IMG/VR virus record: IMGVR_UViG_2693429748_000011
From: a virus
Lineage: Duplodnaviria; Heunggongvirae; Uroviricota; Caudoviricetes
DNA: 4,541 nucleotides
Reading direction: 5' to 3' (one strand)
A program made the position numbers and the translations under genes. The notes under the pieces were generated by a model. It was not told where the DNA came from and did not search any database. It was given only the letters and a program-made list of their open reading frames with translations. Position 1 is the first letter of the stretch, and each line of letters begins with the position of its first letter. This document shows positions 1 to 4,541 of the stretch, in pieces.

Positions 1-82
1 CCAGAACGGGTGGAATTATAGTGCACCTGCACCTCATAAAACGGGTGCCGGGATTGCTACCCCGAAGTCATTCACGGCGCAT

Positions 83-105
83 AACCGCGCTCAGGCGGTT
101 TTTTT
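83..105 (+). terminator. Putative rho-independent terminator (short GC stem followed by T7 tract) ending an upstream + strand transcript
   Basis: aaccgc(83-88) pairs with gcggtt(95-100) around a 6-nt loop, followed by a run of seven T ending at 105. Stem is only 6 bp, so moderate confidence. Confidence 0.4.
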
Positions 106-271
106 ATGCGTAATGCACAGCCACATTCAAATTATGGTGGGGCGTGCGGGGCAGTCGCAAGACTGGCCGGGTTCCGTGATGACCGGTTGTAGCAACCCTG
201 TACGTCTCACCACCCATGAGATTGCTACCTCCGGTGGTGAGTTAATCAAATTCATCGCGGAGGCTGCCATC

Positions 272-445
272 ATGGCTACTACCCTTTCTCACCCTTGTGT
301 AACCGTAGAAAACGGTCGCGCTGTCACTACGTCTGTTGCGGTTGCAGAGTTCTTCCACAAACGACACGACAATGTGTTACGTGCCATCGCAAATATTGAA
401 TGCTCAGATAAATTTACTGCCCTCAATTTTGAAGCGAGCGAATAC
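272..445 (+). CDS. Rha-family phage regulatory protein (antirepressor-like), 5' portion; reading frame runs into N gap
   Basis: ATG at 272 preceded by GGAGG (259-263, 8-nt spacing). Translation MATTLSHPCVTVENGRAVTTSVAVAEFFHKRHDNVLRAIANIECSDKFTALNFEASEY contains the KRHDNVLR..I motif recalled from the phage Rha domain. The six-frame ORF extends upstream to 113 but has no RBS there. Incomplete: ends at the gap. Confidence 0.65.
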
Positions 446-458
446 NNNNNNNNNNNNN
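446..458. other. Assembly gap / masked bases (13 N)
   Basis: Run of n characters; the coding frame of the Rha gene differs on the two sides. Confidence 0.95.
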
Positions 459-476
459 AACTGCGTAAGGCGTTAA

Positions 477-926
477 ATGTTGGATAAAATTCGCAATCTG
501 GACTGTTCAGCAAAATTCACTGAGCACAATTTTGTGTCGAGCGAATACACCGACTCAACCGGGCGCAAACTCCCAATGTACCAAATCACCAAAAACGGCT
601 TCGTTTTCCTGGTTATGGGCTTCACTGGCAAAAAAGCCGCTGCATTCAAAGAAGCCTACATTGCTGAGTTCGACCGCATGGAGGCCGAACTGCGCCAGAA
701 TAACACCCCACCTGCTGACAAGATGATTCCGGGTGATGGTCGCACTCTGGTTGTTCACTTCGACAAATTCGGCAATGTCGAATTCACCGAAACCGTTCCT
801 GATGGCGCACTGGTCTGTCCCCTGGAGACTTTCCGGTTTTATCTGGAAAAACAGGGATGGACTCTTGTTAACCGGGGCGCAATTAAAAATATGACTGTGG
901 AACAATTACTCAAAATTCATTGTTGA
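477..926 (+). CDS. Rha-family phage regulatory protein, C-terminal portion (N-terminally truncated as assembled; possible pseudogene or second paralog)
   Basis: Frame-0 translation from 477: ...IRNLDCSAKFTEHNFVSSEYTDSTGRKLPMYQITKNGFVFLVMGFTGKKAAAFKEAYIAEFDRMEAEL..., matching the Rha-domain core as recalled from memory. A stop codon lies immediately upstream in frame (NCVRR*). Stop TGA at 924-926. Confidence 0.65.
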   Translation: MLDKIRNLDCSAKFTEHNFVSSEYTDSTGRKLPMYQITKNGFVFLVMGFTGKKAAAFKEAYIAEFDRMEAELRQNNTPPADKMIPGDGRTLVVHFDKFGNVEFTETVPDGALVCPLETFRFYLEKQGWTLVNRGAIKNMTVEQLLKIHC

Positions 927-936
927 GGACGCAATA

Positions 937-1125
937 ATGGAGACGTTATTACCAAACGTTAATACGTCTGAAGGTTGTTTTGAAATTGGTGTCACTATCA
1001 GTAACCCTGTATTTACTGAAGATGCCATTAACAAGAGAAAACACGAACGGGAGCTATTAAATAAAATATGCATTGTTTCAATGCTGGCTCGTTTACGTCT
1101 GATGCCAAAAGGATGTGCACAATGA
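937..1125 (+). CDS. Hypothetical small protein (62 aa), first gene of a coupled pair downstream of Rha
   Basis: ATG 937 preceded by GAGGA (925-929). Stop TGA 1123-1125 overlaps the next start (ATGA). A second copy at 2208-2396 differs at 6 of 62 residues with the ORF intact. No recognisable motif. Confidence 0.5.
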   Translation: METLLPNVNTSEGCFEIGVTISNPVFTEDAINKRKHERELLNKICIVSMLARLRLMPKGCAQ

Positions 1126-1313
1126 ATACAGTATTTGCACTCGTTCTGACGGTTTTTCTTGTTTCCGGTGAACCGGTTGACATGGTTACTGGCGTATACA
1201 GCTCAATGAAAGAATGTATGACTGCCGCAGCGAAACAGAAAATTCCCGGTGACTGTTATCCGGTCGATAAAGTTATTCACCATGATAATAACGAAATCCC
1301 GGCAGGTCTTTAA
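1122..1313 (+). CDS. Hypothetical small exported/membrane-anchored protein (63 aa) with hydrophobic N-terminus and two conserved Cys
   Basis: ATG 1122 with AAGGA at 1109-1113 (8-nt spacing). MNTVFALVLTVFLVSG is a hydrophobic signal-peptide-like or TM segment; Cys32 and Cys45 are conserved in the divergent copy at 2393-2584. Roughly 10 synonymous substitutions between copies support real coding. The six-frame ORF start at 1068 lacks an RBS. Confidence 0.65.
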   Translation: MNTVFALVLTVFLVSGEPVDMVTGVYSSMKECMTAAAKQKIPGDCYPVDKVIHHDNNEIPAGL

Positions 1314-1347
1314 AACAGTTCCGTAATAAATATCCGGTTTCNCCAAC

Positions 1348-1851
1348 TTATTGATAGTGTTTTATGTTCAGATAATGCCCGATGACTTTGTCATGCAGCT
1401 CCACCGATTTTGAGAACGACAGCGACTTCCGTCCCAGCCGTGCCAGGTGCTGCCTCAGATTCAGGTTATGCCGCTCAATTCGCTGCGTATATCGCTTGCT
1501 GATTACGTGCAGCTTTCCCTTCAGGCGGGATTCATACAGCGGCCAGCCATCCGTCATCCATATCACCACGTCAAAGGGTGACAGCAGGCTCATAAGACGC
1601 CCCAGCGTCGCCATAGTGCGTTCACCGAATACGTGCGCAACAACCGTCTTCCGGAGACTGTCATACGCGTAAAACAGCCAGCGCTGGCGCGATTTAGCCC
1701 CGACATAGCCCCACTGTTCGTCCATTTCCGCGCAGACGATGACGTCACTGCCCGGCTGTATGCGCGAGGTTACCGACTGCGGCCTGAGTTTTTTAAGTGA
1801 CGTAAAATCGTGTTGAGGCCAACGCCCATAATGCGTGCAGTTGCCCGGCAT
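1348..1851 (-). CDS. insB: IS1 protein InsB (C-terminal catalytic part of InsAB' transposase)
   Basis: 167-aa translation [113 protein letters not shown]... matches IS1 InsB. Overlaps the insA 3' end in the -1 frame. Confidence 0.92.
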
Positions 1852-2045
1852 CCAACGCCATTCATGGCCATATCAATGATTTTCTGGTGCGTACCGGGTT
1901 GAGAAGCGGTGTAAGTGAACTGCAGTTGCCATGTTTTACGGCAGTGAGAGCAGAGATAGCGCTGATGTCCGGCAGTGCTTTTGCCGTTACGCACCACCCC
2001 GTCAGTAGCTGAACAGGAGGGACAGCTGATAGAAACAGAAGCCAC
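1770..2045 (-). CDS. insA: IS1 protein InsA (transposition repressor / N-terminal part of InsAB' transposase)
   Basis: 91-aa translation [91 protein letters not shown] matches IS1 InsA from memory. Confidence 0.95.
1788..1794 (-). other. IS1 programmed -1 ribosomal frameshift site (A6C slippery motif) in the insA/insB overlap
   Basis: + strand gtttttt is AAAAAAC on the coding (-) strand, inside the insA-insB overlap, as in canonical IS1. Confidence 0.8.
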
Positions 2046-2077
2046 TGGAGCACCTCAAAAACACCATCATACACTAA

Positions 2078-2100
2078 ATCAGTAAGTTGGCAGCATCACC
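2078..2100. repeat. IS1 terminal inverted repeat (IRL-type end), intact
   Basis: Reverse complement of 2078-2100 reads ggtgatgctgccaacttactgat. Confidence 0.85.
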
Positions 2101-2197
2101 TTTCCGGTTTTATCTGGAAGAACAGGGATGGACTCTTGTTAACCGGGGCGCAATTAAAAATATGACTGTAGAGCAATTACTCAAAATTCATTGTTGA
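2101..2197 (+). pseudogene. 3' remnant of a second Rha-family gene copy (last about 32 codons), beginning exactly at the IS1 boundary
   Basis: 2101-2197 aligns with 830-926 with about 4 nt differences, stays in frame (..FRFYLEEQGWTLVNRGAIKNMTVEQLLKIHC*), stop TGA 2195-2197. No upstream coding sequence: IS1 abuts at 2100. Confidence 0.6.
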
Positions 2198-2207
2198 GGA
2201 CGCGATA

Positions 2208-2396
2208 ATGGAAACGTTATTACCAAACGTTAATACGACTGAAGGTTGTTTTGAAATTGGTGTCACTATCAGTAACACGGTATTTACTGAAGATGCCATT
2301 AACAAGAGAAAACACGAACGGGAGTCATTAAATAAAATATGCATTGTTTCAATGCTGGCTCGTTTGCGTCTGATGCAAAAAGGATGCTGGCGATGA
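2208..2396 (+). CDS. Hypothetical small protein (62 aa), divergent second copy of the 937-1125 gene
   Basis: ATG 2208 with GAGGA upstream; 6 of 62 aa differ from copy A; ATGA overlap with the following gene is conserved. Confidence 0.5.
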   Translation: METLLPNVNTTEGCFEIGVTISNTVFTEDAINKRKHERESLNKICIVSMLARLRLMQKGCWR

Positions 2397-2584
2397 ATAC
2401 AGCATTTGCACTCGTTCTGACCGTTATTCTTAATACGGGCGAACCAGCTGAACTGGTTACCGGAGTATACAACTCCATGAAAGAATGCGTGGCTGCTGCA
2501 GCTGAACAGAAAATTCCCGGTAACTGTTATCCGGTTGATAAAATCATTCACCAGGATAATAAAGAAGTCCCGGCAGGTCTTTAA
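2393..2584 (+). CDS. Hypothetical small exported/membrane-anchored protein (63 aa), divergent allele of the 1122-1313 gene
   Basis: MNTAFALVLTVILNTGEPAELVTGVYNSMKECVAAAAEQKIPGNCYPVDKIIHQDNKEVPAGL; 16 of 63 aa differ from copy A, with the hydrophobic N-terminus and both Cys kept. AGGA RBS conserved. Confidence 0.65.
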   Translation: MNTAFALVLTVILNTGEPAELVTGVYNSMKECVAAAAEQKIPGNCYPVDKIIHQDNKEVPAGL

Positions 2585-2677
2585 AGCAGCCACGTAATAA
2601 ATATCCGGTTTCATTTTTATATGCCAGCAATGGCAGGGATTTGTTCACCCTTAAATCTGTAATGAGGTTAAAACAAA

Positions 2678-2740
2678 ATGAGTAAAGTCTTTATTTGCGC
2701 CGCCATTCCGGACGAAAAGGCAACAAAAGAAGAAGGCGCT
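2678..2740 (+). CDS. 5' fragment (first 21 codons) of a second copy of the 353-aa hypothetical protein gene, running into N gap
   Basis: 2664-2740 is identical to 3437-3513 (RBS region plus MSKVFICAAIPDEKATKEEGA). Truncated by the gap at 2741. Confidence 0.6.
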
Positions 2741-2788
2741 NNNNNNNNNNNNNNNNNNNNNNNNNNNNNNNNNNNNNNNNNNNNNNNN
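2741..2788. other. Assembly gap / masked bases (48 N)
   Basis: Run of n. Sequence context changes across it, from the 353-aa gene start to the middle of the small-gene pair. Confidence 0.95.
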
Positions 2789-2799
2789 GGATGTGCACA

Positions 2800-2991
2800 A
2801 TGAATACAGTATTTGCACTCGTTCTGACGGTTTTTCTTGTTTCCGGTGAACCGGTTGACATGGTTACTGGCGTATACAGCTCAATGAAAGAATGTATGAC
2901 TGCCGCAGCGAAACAGAAAATTCCCGGTGACTGTTATCCGGTCGATAAAGTTATTCACCATGATAATAACGAAATCCCGGCAGGTCTTTAA
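2800..2991 (+). CDS. Hypothetical small exported/membrane-anchored protein (63 aa), third copy, identical to 1122-1313
   Basis: 2789-3020 appears base-for-base identical to 1111-1341. The upstream partner gene is lost in the gap. Confidence 0.65.
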   Translation: MNTVFALVLTVFLVSGEPVDMVTGVYSSMKECMTAAAKQKIPGDCYPVDKVIHHDNNEIPAGL

Positions 2992-3075
2992 AACAGTTCC
3001 GTAATAAATATCCGGTTTCATTCTTATATGCCAGCAATGGCAGGGGTTCGCTCAACCTTAATTAAGGAGAAAAAC

Positions 3076-3351
3076 ATGATTACCAGTTATGAAGCCACTG
3101 TTGTAACTACTGATGACATTGTTCACGAGGTTAATCTGGAAGGAAAGCGTATTGGCTACGTGATTAAGACAGAAAATAAAGAAACCCCATTCACTGTGGT
3201 TGATATCGACGGTCCATCAGGCAACGTTAAAACACTTAACGATGGTGTAAAAAAAATGTGTCTGGTGCACATAGGAAAGAATCTGCCCGCAGAAAAAAAA
3301 GCCGAATTTCTGGCAACTCTGATTGCAATGAAATTAAAAGGTGAAATCTGA
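3076..3351 (+). CDS. Hypothetical protein (91 aa), moron-like accessory gene with its own RBS; function unknown
   Basis: ATG 3076 preceded by a strong AAGGAG (3064-3069, 6-nt spacing). MITSYEATVVTTDDIVHEVNLEGKRIGYVIKTENKETPFTVVDIDGPSGNVKTLNDGVKKMCLVHIGKNLPAEKKAEFLATLIAMKLKGEI. No signal peptide, Lys-rich. Followed by a palindrome at 3361-3381. Absent from the paralogous context at 2585-2677. Confidence 0.7.
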   Translation: MITSYEATVVTTDDIVHEVNLEGKRIGYVIKTENKETPFTVVDIDGPSGNVKTLNDGVKKMCLVHIGKNLPAEKKAEFLATLIAMKLKGEI

Positions 3352-3360
3352 AAAAAAGAA

Positions 3361-3381
3361 AGCCTGCACACTGTGCAGGCC
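3361..3381. terminator. Perfect palindromic stem-loop after the 91-aa gene; terminator-like (U-tract is on the minus-strand side)
   Basis: gcctgcac-act-gtgcaggc is an 8-bp GC-rich stem. On the + strand it follows an A-run (aaaaaaagaaa) and has no T-run after it; on the - strand it reads hairpin then tttcttttttt, a classic intrinsic terminator. It may terminate antisense transcription or stabilise the moron mRNA. Confidence 0.4.
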
Positions 3382-3450
3382 TGAGTGAAGAACCTGGGAC
3401 ATTTATTCATCACTCGCAGTAATTTTAATCTGAGTTGAGGTTAAAACAAA

Positions 3451-4512
3451 ATGAGTAAAGTCTTTATTTGCGCCGCCATTCCGGACGAAAAGGCAACAAA
3501 AGAAGAAGGCGCTAAACCTGTAGCCACTGCCATTGAAGCCGGCGACGAACGCCGCGCCCGCGCAAAATTTCACTGGCAATTCCTGGAACATTATCCGGCT
3601 GCTCAGGACTGCGCTTATAAATTTATTGTCTGCGAGGATAAACCTGGTATACCCCGCCCTGCCCTCGATTCCTGGGATGCTGAATATATGCAGGAAAACC
3701 GCTGGGATGAGGAGTCTGCTTCCTTTGTCCCGGTTGAGACTGAATCCGAACCGATGAACGTCACTTTTGACAAGCTGGCCCCTGAAGTACAGAACGCTGT
3801 CATGGTTAAGTTCGACACATGTGAAAACATCACCGTTGATATGGTGATTAGCGCGCAGGAACTGTTGCAGGAAGACATGGCAACATTCGACGGACATATC
3901 GTTGAAGCGTTGATGAAAATGCCAGAAGTTAACGCCATGTGTCCGGAGATTAAACTGCATGCCATCGGGTGGATTAAGCATAAATGTAAGCCTGGTGCAA
4001 AATGGCCAGAAATTCAGGCAGAGATGCGCATCTGGAAAAAATGTCGCGAAGGTGAACGCAAGGAAACCGGAAAATACACGTCTGTTGTTGATCTCGCCCG
4101 TGCCAGAGCCAATCAACAGCACACTGAAAATTCAACAGGAAAAATCAGCCCGGCCATTGCTGCCATTCATCGCGAATACAAGCAGACATGGAAAACACTG
4201 GATGACGAACTGGCCTACGCTCTCTGGCCTGGTGATGTGGATGCCGGAAACATTGACGGCAGCATCCATCGCTGGGCAAAAAATGAAGTTATCGACAACG
4301 ACCGCGAAGACTGGAAGCGTATCTCGGCATCAATGCGCAAACAGCCTGATGCCCTTCGCTACGACCGCCAGACTATTTTTGGCCTTGTCCGTGAACGTCC
4401 GATCGACATTCACAAAGACCCTGTGGCACTGAACAAATACATTACTGAATACCTGACTACAAAGGGCGTGTTTGAAGATGAAGGAACAAATCAGAGCGCA
4501 ACTGATACTTGA
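3451..4512 (+). CDS. Hypothetical prophage protein (353 aa), acidic, function unknown
   Basis: Long ORF with start ATG 3451 and GAGG at 3437-3440. The first 21 codons and RBS region are conserved in a second copy at 2664-2740. No Walker, HNH or obvious DNA-binding motif recognised by eye. Overlapping antisense ORFs judged spurious. Confidence 0.8.
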   Translation: MSKVFICAAIPDEKATKEEGAKPVATAIEAGDERRARAKFHWQFLEHYPAAQDCAYKFIVCEDKPGIPRPALDSWDAEYMQENRWDEESASFVPVETESEPMNVTFDKLAPEVQNAVMVKFDTCENITVDMVISAQELLQEDMATFDGHIVEALMKMPEVNAMCPEIKLHAIGWIKHKCKPGAKWPEIQAEMRIWKKCREGERKETGKYTSVVDLARARANQQHTENSTGKISPAIAAIHREYKQTWKTLDDELAYALWPGDVDAGNIDGSIHRWAKNEVIDNDREDWKRISASMRKQPDALRYDRQTIFGLVRERPIDIHKDPVALNKYITEYLTTKGVFEDEGTNQSATDT

Positions 4513-4541
4513 GGTGTACTGGCAATAGCGGACACTACCAT

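Follow-up and report, generated by a model that had tools for sequence, protein, structure and literature searches.

The stretch of viral DNA analyzed here (4,541 nt, hereafter the window) contains two small overlapping genes on the plus strand. In the open reading frame list, gene 1 spans positions 937–1125 (62 aa) and gene 2 spans positions 1122–1313 (63 aa). The ATGA at 1122–1125 is common to the stop codon of gene 1 and the start codon of gene 2. The stop codon of the preceding Rha gene (924–926) is located inside TGAGGA, the Shine–Dalgarno site of gene 1, and is followed by a 10-bp spacer (927–936). The pair is referred to as copy A, and a second pair further along the window as copy B. 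The features of the window are as follows.

29–105, plus strand: isrK-like Hfq-binding sRNA that opens the Rha cassette of locus A and has a terminator hairpin (83–100) with a T run behind it (Rfam RF01394, 64.8 bits, gathering score 50, E = 1e-12).
130–217, plus strand: C4-type antisense RNA, of the kind known from phage P1/P7 immI (Rfam RF01695, 79 bits, gathering score 45, E = 5.8e-15, full-length model).
272–926, plus strand: Rha-family regulator/antirepressor gene of locus A (Pfam Phage_pRha matches at 272–445 and 477–923).
937–1125, plus strand: dicB copy A, 62 aa, predicted cell-division inhibitor (Pfam DicB, likeness to K-12).
1107–1113, plus strand: putative Shine–Dalgarno site of ydfD, AAAAGGA, within the 3′ end of dicB and 8 nt before the ATG at 1122 (read from the sequence).
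1122–1313, plus strand: ydfD copy A, 63 aa, DUF1482, predicted lysis protein (Pfam PF07358).
1343–2100, minus strand: IS1 element (InsA/InsB ORFs on the minus strand).
2101–2197, plus strand: 3′ remnant of rha, locus B (3 of 97 nt differ from copy A).
2208–2396, plus strand: dicB copy B, 62 aa (Pfam DicB; 6 of 62 residues differ from copy A).
2393–2584, plus strand: ydfD copy B, 63 aa (Pfam DUF1482; 16 of 63 residues differ from copy A).
2789–3019, plus strand: second entry of locus A, comprising the dicB 3′ end, ydfD, and the 3′ spacer (0 differences in 231 nt to 1111–1341).
3076–3351, plus strand: orf91, a small gene 3′ of ydfD in locus A (PHROG 4778, a function-unknown group, E = 9e-61; the related loci L369–L373 have it annotated as a 91-aa gene following DUF1482).
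3451–4512, plus strand: ydfE of locus B, the N-terminal 353 aa of an 823-aa prophage exonuclease (PHROG 2082 exonuclease, positions 1–353 of 823).
4510–4541, no strand assigned: IS3-family terminal repeat truncating ydfE (the 32 nt match both ends of the IS3-family copies, with rve transposase, in loci L369 and L370).

Both RNA matches exceed their gathering scores (79 versus 45 bits for C4 and 64.8 versus 50 bits for isrK) and lie 5′ of the antirepressor-type Rha gene. The isrK/C4–Rha cassette stands directly ahead of the division inhibitor and the lysis gene.

The window contains runs of N at 446–458, 1342, and 2741–2788. Its segments 1–445, 491–1341, and 2789–3455 show colinearity with a single locus in complete Shigella sonnei chromosomes (e.g., HE616528), designated locus A, where the order is Rha (281 aa), DicB, DUF1482, orf91, and an IS; the segment 2789–3455 is 99.7% identical to positions 5999–6665 of the S. 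sonnei 53G locus (L370). The segments 1343–2740 and 3424–4541 follow one locus of the 146-kb contig AKND01000019 (L375) in colinear order, overlapping by 90 bp, and are 99.9% and 99.6% identical to it, respectively. In this locus, designated locus B, the order is ydfA, IS1, rha remnant, DicB, DUF1482, YdfE (353 aa), an IS3-family element, and molybdopterin-enzyme genes. The first 63 nt of ydfE are present a second time in the window at 2678–2740, and the counterpart of ydfE in L375 has Pfam YdfE_N and YdfE_C on record. In six complete or near-complete chromosomes, a second DUF1482 gene was never found within 6 kb of copy A. The window, a draft scaffold, alternates between pieces of two paralogous prophage remnants, both riddled with IS elements, from a Shigella-type genome. 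The comparison of A with B is therefore valid as a comparison of paralogues, and the tandem appearance and the apparent third copy are assembly artifacts. A tandem duplication with IS1 between the copies was ruled out by the complete S. sonnei chromosomes and the 146-kb contig. The segment 2789–3019, taken as a third copy, is 100% identical to 1111–1341 and follows an N run; it is locus A entered twice.

The rha gene of locus A is not intact in the window, being interrupted by the N run at 446–458 and by a redundant stretch of ~59 bp around it; an intact 281-aa rha ORF is present in the S. sonnei 53G locus. The IS1 element lacks ~10 nt at the end beside the single n (1342), and its intact end at 2100 splits the rha gene of locus B. 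This junction, 108 bp 5′ of dicB copy B, is real because the same IS1–rha′ junction is present in the independent contig AKND01000019. A consensus scan of the plus strand found no internal promoter for copy B after IS1. The oppositely oriented IS1 cuts copy B off from the operon promoter, and in this genome copy B may not be expressed. An intact isrK–C4–Rha cassette precedes copy A.

Gene 1 of copy A matched the Pfam DicB family (PF05358) with an E value of 4e-40 and 135.8 bits (cut-off 27), over positions 1–62 of 62, and that of copy B with 124.1 bits (cut-off 27) over profile positions 1–60 of 62. Gene 2 matched DUF1482 (PF07358) with an E value of 8e-23 and 80.6 bits in copy A and with 75.5 bits in copy B (cut-off 25), and the match of YdfD to PHROG 1092 spans positions 1–63 of 63. 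In the Qin prophage of Escherichia coli K-12, dicB (b1575) and ydfD (b1576, annotated as "lysis protein") likewise overlap by 4 nt. DicB of copy A is identical to b1575 at 60 of 62 residues, with two differing, and YdfD is identical to b1576 at 47 of 63 residues in copy A (16 differ) and 42 of 63 in copy B. The dicB leader and the Shine–Dalgarno region of ydfD are nearly identical between copy A and K-12. The YdfD protein of copy A is also 100% identical to a "MULTISPECIES [Shigella]" "DUF1482 family protein" cluster (P0001), and the copy B allele of ydfD has an identical match in two independent NCBI assemblies. All the sequence-level family features of DicB and YdfD/DUF1482 (HMM match, length, orthology, junction, and cysteines) were found. 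We are confident that the overlapping small genes are the dicB–ydfD module of the early-left operon of Qin-type lambdoid prophages and that the divergence of ydfD reflects mosaicism. The pair is already known, having been annotated and studied experimentally. Both genes belong to characterized families, DicB and YdfD/DUF1482.

The dicB–ydfD segment was matched in 4320 of 5426 complete E. coli genomes (~80%), at up to eight places per genome. The E. coli matches are annotated as "dicB / DUF1482 family protein" and usually lie between a Rha gene or dicF and the exonuclease gene. In E. coli KFu019 (L001), the gene order is repressor pair, ydfC, Rha, dicB, DUF1482, 823-aa exonuclease, DUF4224 family protein, integrase, and tRNA-Ser, which is the arrangement of a lambdoid early-left operon adjoining the attachment site. 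A repressor pair together with ydfA, ydfC, or dicF is found 5′ of dicB in L001, L369–L373, and L375. The Rfam scan of the window gave no DicF; related loci have dicF 5′ of the Rha cassette, a position outside the window. With 208 clusters at 90% identity, the YdfD family is a small one, and its source names, where given, are Escherichia or Shigella. A scan of species-representative genomes yielded six loci, namely those of E. ruysiae, E. albertii, two E. coli, Shigella flexneri, and a Veillonella-labelled MAG contig. In a search of solved structures, DicB had no relatives and YdfD had chance-level matches only, and a literature search under the name DUF1482 found no papers. The dicB–ydfD pair is carried by most E. 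coli and Shigella genomes, and its presence here has little weight as a discovery.

The first-pass annotation had pointed to the ATGA overlap at 1122–1125 and the 10-bp gap after the Rha stop codon, both of which are present in the sequence, and had proposed one operon with a translationally coupled pair. Among the matches listed, the junction is ATGA in 149 of 158 distinct segments and GTGA in eight (157 of 158 together). One allele class that keeps ATGA in this fixed-offset reading has a DicB ending two codons earlier (TGA-CA-ATG), with a 2-nt gap before the ATG of ydfD. An AAGGA-type motif lies 5–12 nt 5′ of the ydfD start in 157 of the 158 segments, again among the matches listed. From Rha through dicB to ydfD, the consensus scan of the plus strand found neither a promoter-like nor a terminator-like site. 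In K-12, a polycistronic ydfABC–dicF–dicB–ydfD transcript has been detected (PMC10448788). Good support for the proposed single operon and coupled translation comes, at the level of sequence, from the conserved junction and Shine–Dalgarno motif and the uninterrupted gene order, and from the K-12 transcript. Ribosomes ending dicB would start ydfD through the conserved ATGA overlap and the Shine–Dalgarno site inside dicB. The lysis protein would therefore not be made without its upstream neutralizer.

The functions of both proteins have been investigated in K-12. DicB, a 62-aa protein, interacts with MinC and keeps the Z ring from forming, and transient expression of dicBF reduces the plating of lambda to ~4% (PMC6832061). 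This exclusion requires DicB and the DicB–MinC interaction and is restricted to phages whose DNA enters by way of ManYZ, and deletion of ydfD has a minimal effect on it (PMC6832061). Expression of YdfD (63 aa) leads to rapid, division-dependent lysis, which is prevented by coexpression of DicB or SulA (PMC8835842). YdfD binds IspG, a cytoplasmic enzyme, as judged by pull-down, size-exclusion, ITC (Kd ~18 μM), and FRET; this evidence is modest, having been obtained with N-terminally tagged proteins and without enzyme kinetics (PMC8835842). The lysis is relieved by overexpression of ispG or by HMBPP, and cysteine mutants of YdfD still bind IspG (PMC8835842). The C-terminal part of YdfD alone retains some killing activity, according to the citation of Masuda 2016 in the same paper (PMC8835842).

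We infer the functions of the two proteins in the window from those of their K-12 orthologues, at 97% identity for DicB and 75% for YdfD (67% for YdfD of copy B). Here, we propose how the pair may act. In an inducing prophage, it would stall division and keep a latent lytic activity in check. YdfD would lyse dividing cells, reportedly by binding IspG and thereby starving the cell of isoprenoid (undecaprenyl-phosphate) precursors, and this lysis would be cancelled when DicB or SulA blocks division. As a side effect, DicB would keep the DNA of lambda and phage 434 from entering by the ManYZ-dependent route. The phage-exclusion factor within the pair, as predicted from orthology, is the first gene product, DicB.

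Copies A and B were compared without gaps at an offset of exactly 1271 nt. The differences amount to 3 of 97 nt in the rha 3′ end, 1 of 10 nt in the spacer, 13 of 189 nt and 6 of 62 aa in dicB, and 29 of 192 nt and 16 of 63 aa in ydfD. This recount agrees with the figures of the first-pass annotation (~4 nt per ~100 bp in the Rha 3′ end, 6 of 62 aa, and 16 of 63 aa). Its figure of about 10 synonymous changes in gene 2 is also borne out, the Nei–Gojobori count being 12.0 synonymous and 17.0 nonsynonymous differences. The hydrophobic N-terminus, both cysteines (Cys32 and Cys45), and the reading frame of gene 2 are kept between the copies, as had been described. The dS, dN, and dN/dS values were 0.150, 0.053, and 0.36 for dicB and 0.346, 0.127, and 0.37 for ydfD, respectively, and the two genes are under similar purifying selection.

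The divergence between the copies is uneven beyond chance, as had been suggested. The maximum chi-square method placed a change point at ~1116, in the last codons of dicB, with 12 differences in 286 nt (4.2%) on the left and 38 in 226 nt (16.8%) on the right (p = 0.0004 from 5000 permutations). Since silent and replacement changes rise together, the step indicates a deeper ancestry of ydfD and not faster protein evolution. The breakpoint at ~1116 joins a recently shared rha–dicB segment to an older ydfD allele, as in phage mosaicism. Two natural recombinants among the related loci show that this junction is used. In L002, a dicB of the A type (1 nt different) is followed by a ydfD resembling that of K-12 (32 nt different), and the region 5′ of the pair is unrelated. 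The other, L077, has a B-type DicB body (T24 and S40), an A-type tail, and an A-type YdfD. The pattern of A/B divergence is ordinary lambdoid mosaicism. For paralogous prophage genes in general, a step in divergence should first be tested as a recombination breakpoint, at which synonymous and nonsynonymous differences change together, and only then as selection. Draft scaffolds may interleave paralogous prophage loci and mimic tandem duplications.

The first-pass annotation had regarded ydfD as a divergence hot-spot. A survey of IMG/VR covered at least 349 dicB–ydfD pairs and at least 158 distinct 445-nt segments, among the matches listed. Four anchors were used (DicB, YdfD, the exonuclease N-terminus, and a 21-nt exact dicF word), and each set is biased toward its own anchor. 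Among the matches listed, the other gene looks more divergent in the sets anchored on DicB or on YdfD. Because one-protein anchors inflate the other gene in this way, the exonuclease- and dicF-anchored sets were added to bracket the bias. Among the matches listed, the pN values were 0.032 for dicB and 0.030 for ydfD with the exonuclease anchor, and 0.050 for dicB, 0.066 for ydfD, and 0.073 for the exonuclease N-terminus with the dicF anchor. The survey-wide pN/pS ranged from 0.19 to 0.44 for dicB and from 0.28 to 0.46 for ydfD, and dN exceeded dS for ydfD in 1% of haplotype pairs (both among the matches listed). In the three sets examined, the diversity at first and second codon positions was higher in dicB than in ydfD among the matches listed.

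Within the pair, and among the matches listed, ydfD codons 17–30 are the most variable of the gene, with a pS of 0.54 (0.17–0.35 elsewhere in the gene) and a pN/pS of 0.40, and a second peak of diversity lies over the DicB tail at the 3′ end of dicB. The most constrained part of the pair is ydfD codons 31–50 (pN/pS 0.11, among the matches listed). A dN/dS above 1 was sought for ydfD and its subregions and found for none, the subregions giving 0.11–0.49 among the matches listed. Among the matches listed, YdfD does not surpass DicB or the neighboring exonuclease in variability, and it shows no sign of positive selection. The hot-spot is not upheld: the A/B ratios are 0.37 and 0.36, and the excess is gone in the survey among the matches listed. 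With both genes in known families and no excess divergence, the two outcomes that the first-pass annotation had itself set against its hot-spot reading, that reading is not supported.

The two diversity peaks could also be read as old allele classes. Here, YdfD residues ~14–30 and the DicB tail would be specificity variants held by balancing or frequency-dependent selection rather than the product of neutral shuffling. The synonymous peak at ydfD codons 17–30 and the peak at the dicB 3′ end (both among the matches listed) would be expected from such classes, and discrete YdfD classes do recur (IAVSVHRTMQ, MVTGVYSSMK, LVIGIHDSMK, and AITGMYNSMK). In the recombinant L077, moreover, the DicB tail and the YdfD allele move together. 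However, peaks of old diversity between recombination junctions are the normal texture of lambdoid mosaics and do not require selection, and the linkage is trivial, as the DicB tail adjoins ydfD. Matching of alleles is not required either, since DicB neutralizes YdfD indirectly, as SulA does too (PMC8835842). Selection of this kind is an unlikely cause of the peaks. We likewise see only a slim chance that YdfD ~14–30 and the last 6–7 residues of DicB form ancient balanced classes that set lysis protein/neutralizer or lysis protein/target specificity, or, separately, that the site of YdfD is periplasmic, contrary to the IspG model.

The second gene product had been called exported-looking. YdfD has a short uncharged N-terminal helix, an acidic C-terminal part, and two invariant cysteines. 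Its uncharged hydrophobic run of 11–15 residues ends in VSG or NTG, which fits the length of an h-region and small residues at −3/−1. Among the matches listed, no charged residue occurs in positions 1–16 of 81 of the 82 distinct YdfD proteins, and Cys32 and Cys45 are invariant in all 82. An AlphaFold2 model from a 38-sequence alignment (mean pLDDT 64.6, pTM 0.37), with helices at 3–15 and 19–38, had a confidence too low to be relied on. A fair case can be made from these properties that YdfD looks exported at the level of its sequence. The uncharged N-terminus and the cysteine pair speak for the description, whereas the lack of a charged n-region and of a lipobox, the cytoplasmic location of the reported target, IspG, the residual toxicity of the C-terminal part, and the retained IspG binding of the cysteine mutants (PMC8835842) speak against it.

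From this description, YdfD had been taken as an exported or surface-exposed protein under diversifying selection from phage interaction, for example in superinfection exclusion. The signal-peptidase-like VSG/NTG end of the N-terminus and the cysteines kept in 82 of 82 proteins among the matches listed, as a periplasmic disulfide would predict, agree with such a role, as do the 16 of 63 residues differing between copies A and B and the position of the most variable patch at residues ~14–30 among the matches listed. Against this, the dN/dS of ydfD is 0.37 between A and B and 0.28–0.46 in the survey, no subregion exceeds 0.5, and dN is greater than dS in 1% of pairs (among the matches listed). 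The synonymous divergence climbs in parallel, and the step starts inside dicB. With the neutral anchors, YdfD does not vary more than DicB or the exonuclease among the matches listed. The first 16 residues lack Lys and Arg in 81 of 82 YdfD proteins, leaving no positive n-region, and there is no lipobox (both among the matches listed). The reported target is cytoplasmic and the C-terminal part alone is partly toxic, as cited in PMC8835842. Deletion of ydfD hardly alters the lambda resistance conferred by dicBF (PMC6832061). In addition, the PADLOC-DB defense models gave no match to DicB, YdfD, Rha, orf91, or YdfE at E values up to 0.01. A surface or phage-interaction role of gene 2 is not borne out by the deletion phenotype and the PADLOC search, and diversifying selection on an exported YdfD is very unlikely. 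That the A/B differences are an artifact of assembly chimeras, sequencing errors, or pseudogene decay in an IS-ridden genome can practically be discounted. The window does have three N runs, a duplicated A segment, and interleaved loci, IS1 detaches copy B from its promoter, and another IS cuts ydfE. However, A-identical proteins are encoded in complete S. sonnei chromosomes (L369–L374), and the B locus occurs independently in the 146-kb contig (99.9% identity) and in E. coli RMDEC465 (98.9%). None of the four ORFs is disrupted, and a dN/dS of ~0.36 is unlike free decay.

The dicB–ydfD module of the window is most closely comparable with the dicBF operon of the K-12 Qin prophage. The two share both Pfam families, the lengths of 62 and 63 aa, the ATGA overlap, the leader and Shine–Dalgarno region, and ydfE downstream. 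They differ in that YdfD here belongs to another allele class. Directly 5′ of the pair, the window has the Rha regulator with the isrK and C4 RNAs, whereas K-12 has dicF. Furthermore, insertion sequences interrupt the genes flanking copy B here, with IS1 in rha and an IS3-family element truncating ydfE. Lambda Kil and Rac KilR are FtsZ inhibitors of prophage early operons. Like DicB, they are small early-left proteins that block host division transiently after induction. In contrast, no sequence relationship of DicB with Kil or KilR was detected, and DicB acts through MinC and not directly on FtsZ (PMC6832061).

YdfD can be compared with the single-gene lysis proteins phiX174 E (target MraY), Qbeta A2 (MurA), and LysM (MurJ), which are likewise very small and have an N-terminal hydrophobic segment (PMC8835842). 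As with these proteins, only growing or dividing cells are lysed, and the supply of envelope precursors is blocked (PMC8835842). Unlike them, YdfD has an unrelated sequence and is encoded in the early operon of a temperate dsDNA prophage, where it is not the lysis gene of the phage. Its reported target is IspG, and it is paired with an upstream neutralizer. In the immI operon of phage P1, the order is c4–icd–ant, and icd encodes a division inhibitor. The cassette of copy A resembles immI in combining a C4-type RNA, an antirepressor-like gene, and a cell-division inhibitor. In the copy A cassette, however, the antirepressor gene precedes the division inhibitor, DicB is not Icd, and an isrK-type sRNA is added.

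The window (1-4541) is a draft scaffold in which two paralogous Shigella-type prophage loci, A and B, are interleaved, each with one copy of dicB (cell-division inhibitor) and ydfD (lysis protein). The scaffold is composed as follows.

446-458, 1342 and 2741-2788: N runs
1-445, 491-1341 and 2789-3455: segments of locus A
1343-2740 and 3424-4541: segments of locus B

Two stretches are entered in duplicate: 2789-3019 equals 1111-1341, and 3424-3513 corresponds to 2651-2740. A redundancy of ~59 bp also surrounds the first N run (446-458). The individual features of the two loci are listed below.

29-105: isrK RNA gene, above the Rfam gathering score
130-217: C4 RNA gene, above the Rfam gathering score
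1343-2100, minus strand: IS1 element inserted 108 bp upstream of dicB, within the Rha-family regulator gene (rha) of locus B
3076-3351: orf91, 91 codons, PHROG 4778, between ydfD and the exonuclease gene
3360-3382: strong, GC-rich hairpin of 10 bp, just 3' of orf91
within 3451-4541: prophage exonuclease gene ydfE, cut at codon 353 (823 aa in intact phages)

Some prophages carry an isrK–C4–rha cassette of ~0.9 kb between dicF and dicB (5743-7031 in Escherichia coli KFu019, L001; 1411-2700 in L035; 4760-6013 in Shigella sonnei 53G, L370), and its counterpart in the window is 1-936. The arrangement is common to ~245 complete E. coli genomes. Because the junction of the cassette lies ~20 nt ahead of the ATG of dicB, the Rha stop codon lies inside the dicB Shine–Dalgarno site. 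At the other end, isrK and C4 share DNA and strand (17-290) with the N-terminal "Phage_ASH" Pfam domain of the Rha ORF, which comprises residues 14-104 of the 281-aa ORF as called in complete Shigella genomes (L370:4969-5811). Either one stretch of DNA serves both purposes, or the domain model or the ORF extension represents translated RNA genes.

In locus B, the IS1 element detaches dicB–ydfD from the operon promoter. The same IS1/rha junction (2100/2101) is present in the 146-kb contig AKND01000019. The window closes with 32 nt from the end of an IS3-family element. Orf91 occurs in A-type loci only and has no Pfam match. Since a T run follows the adjoining hairpin on the minus strand only and an A run precedes it on the plus strand, the hairpin looks like a minus-strand terminator.

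Premature stop codons in ydfD were found in several related contigs (L062, L221, L339, and L212; also L035, L071, and L258), and an identical stop after codon 30 (...HRTMQ*) recurs across different allele backgrounds, which suggests that the lysis gene has been inactivated repeatedly. The dicB gene is intact in most of these contigs and disrupted in L212. In one allele class (L088 and L093-L123), DicB is two codons shorter (60 aa, ...KGR*), a gap of 2 nt separates its stop codon from the ATG of ydfD in place of the overlap, and the partner is a 67-aa YdfD with a KTAP extension. Contig L166 (JAGZPX010000007.1), assigned to a Veillonella parvula MAG but probably a binning contaminant, also carries a ydfD homologue; all other occurrences with a source name were in Escherichia and Shigella.

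Like the truncated exonuclease gene of the window, ydfE of K-12 is a pseudogene. The cassette upstream of dicB may be likened to the c4–icd–ant operon of phage P1, in which an antisense-RNA-controlled antirepressor is likewise combined with a division inhibitor, although in the cassette arrangement the inhibitor comes after the antirepressor.
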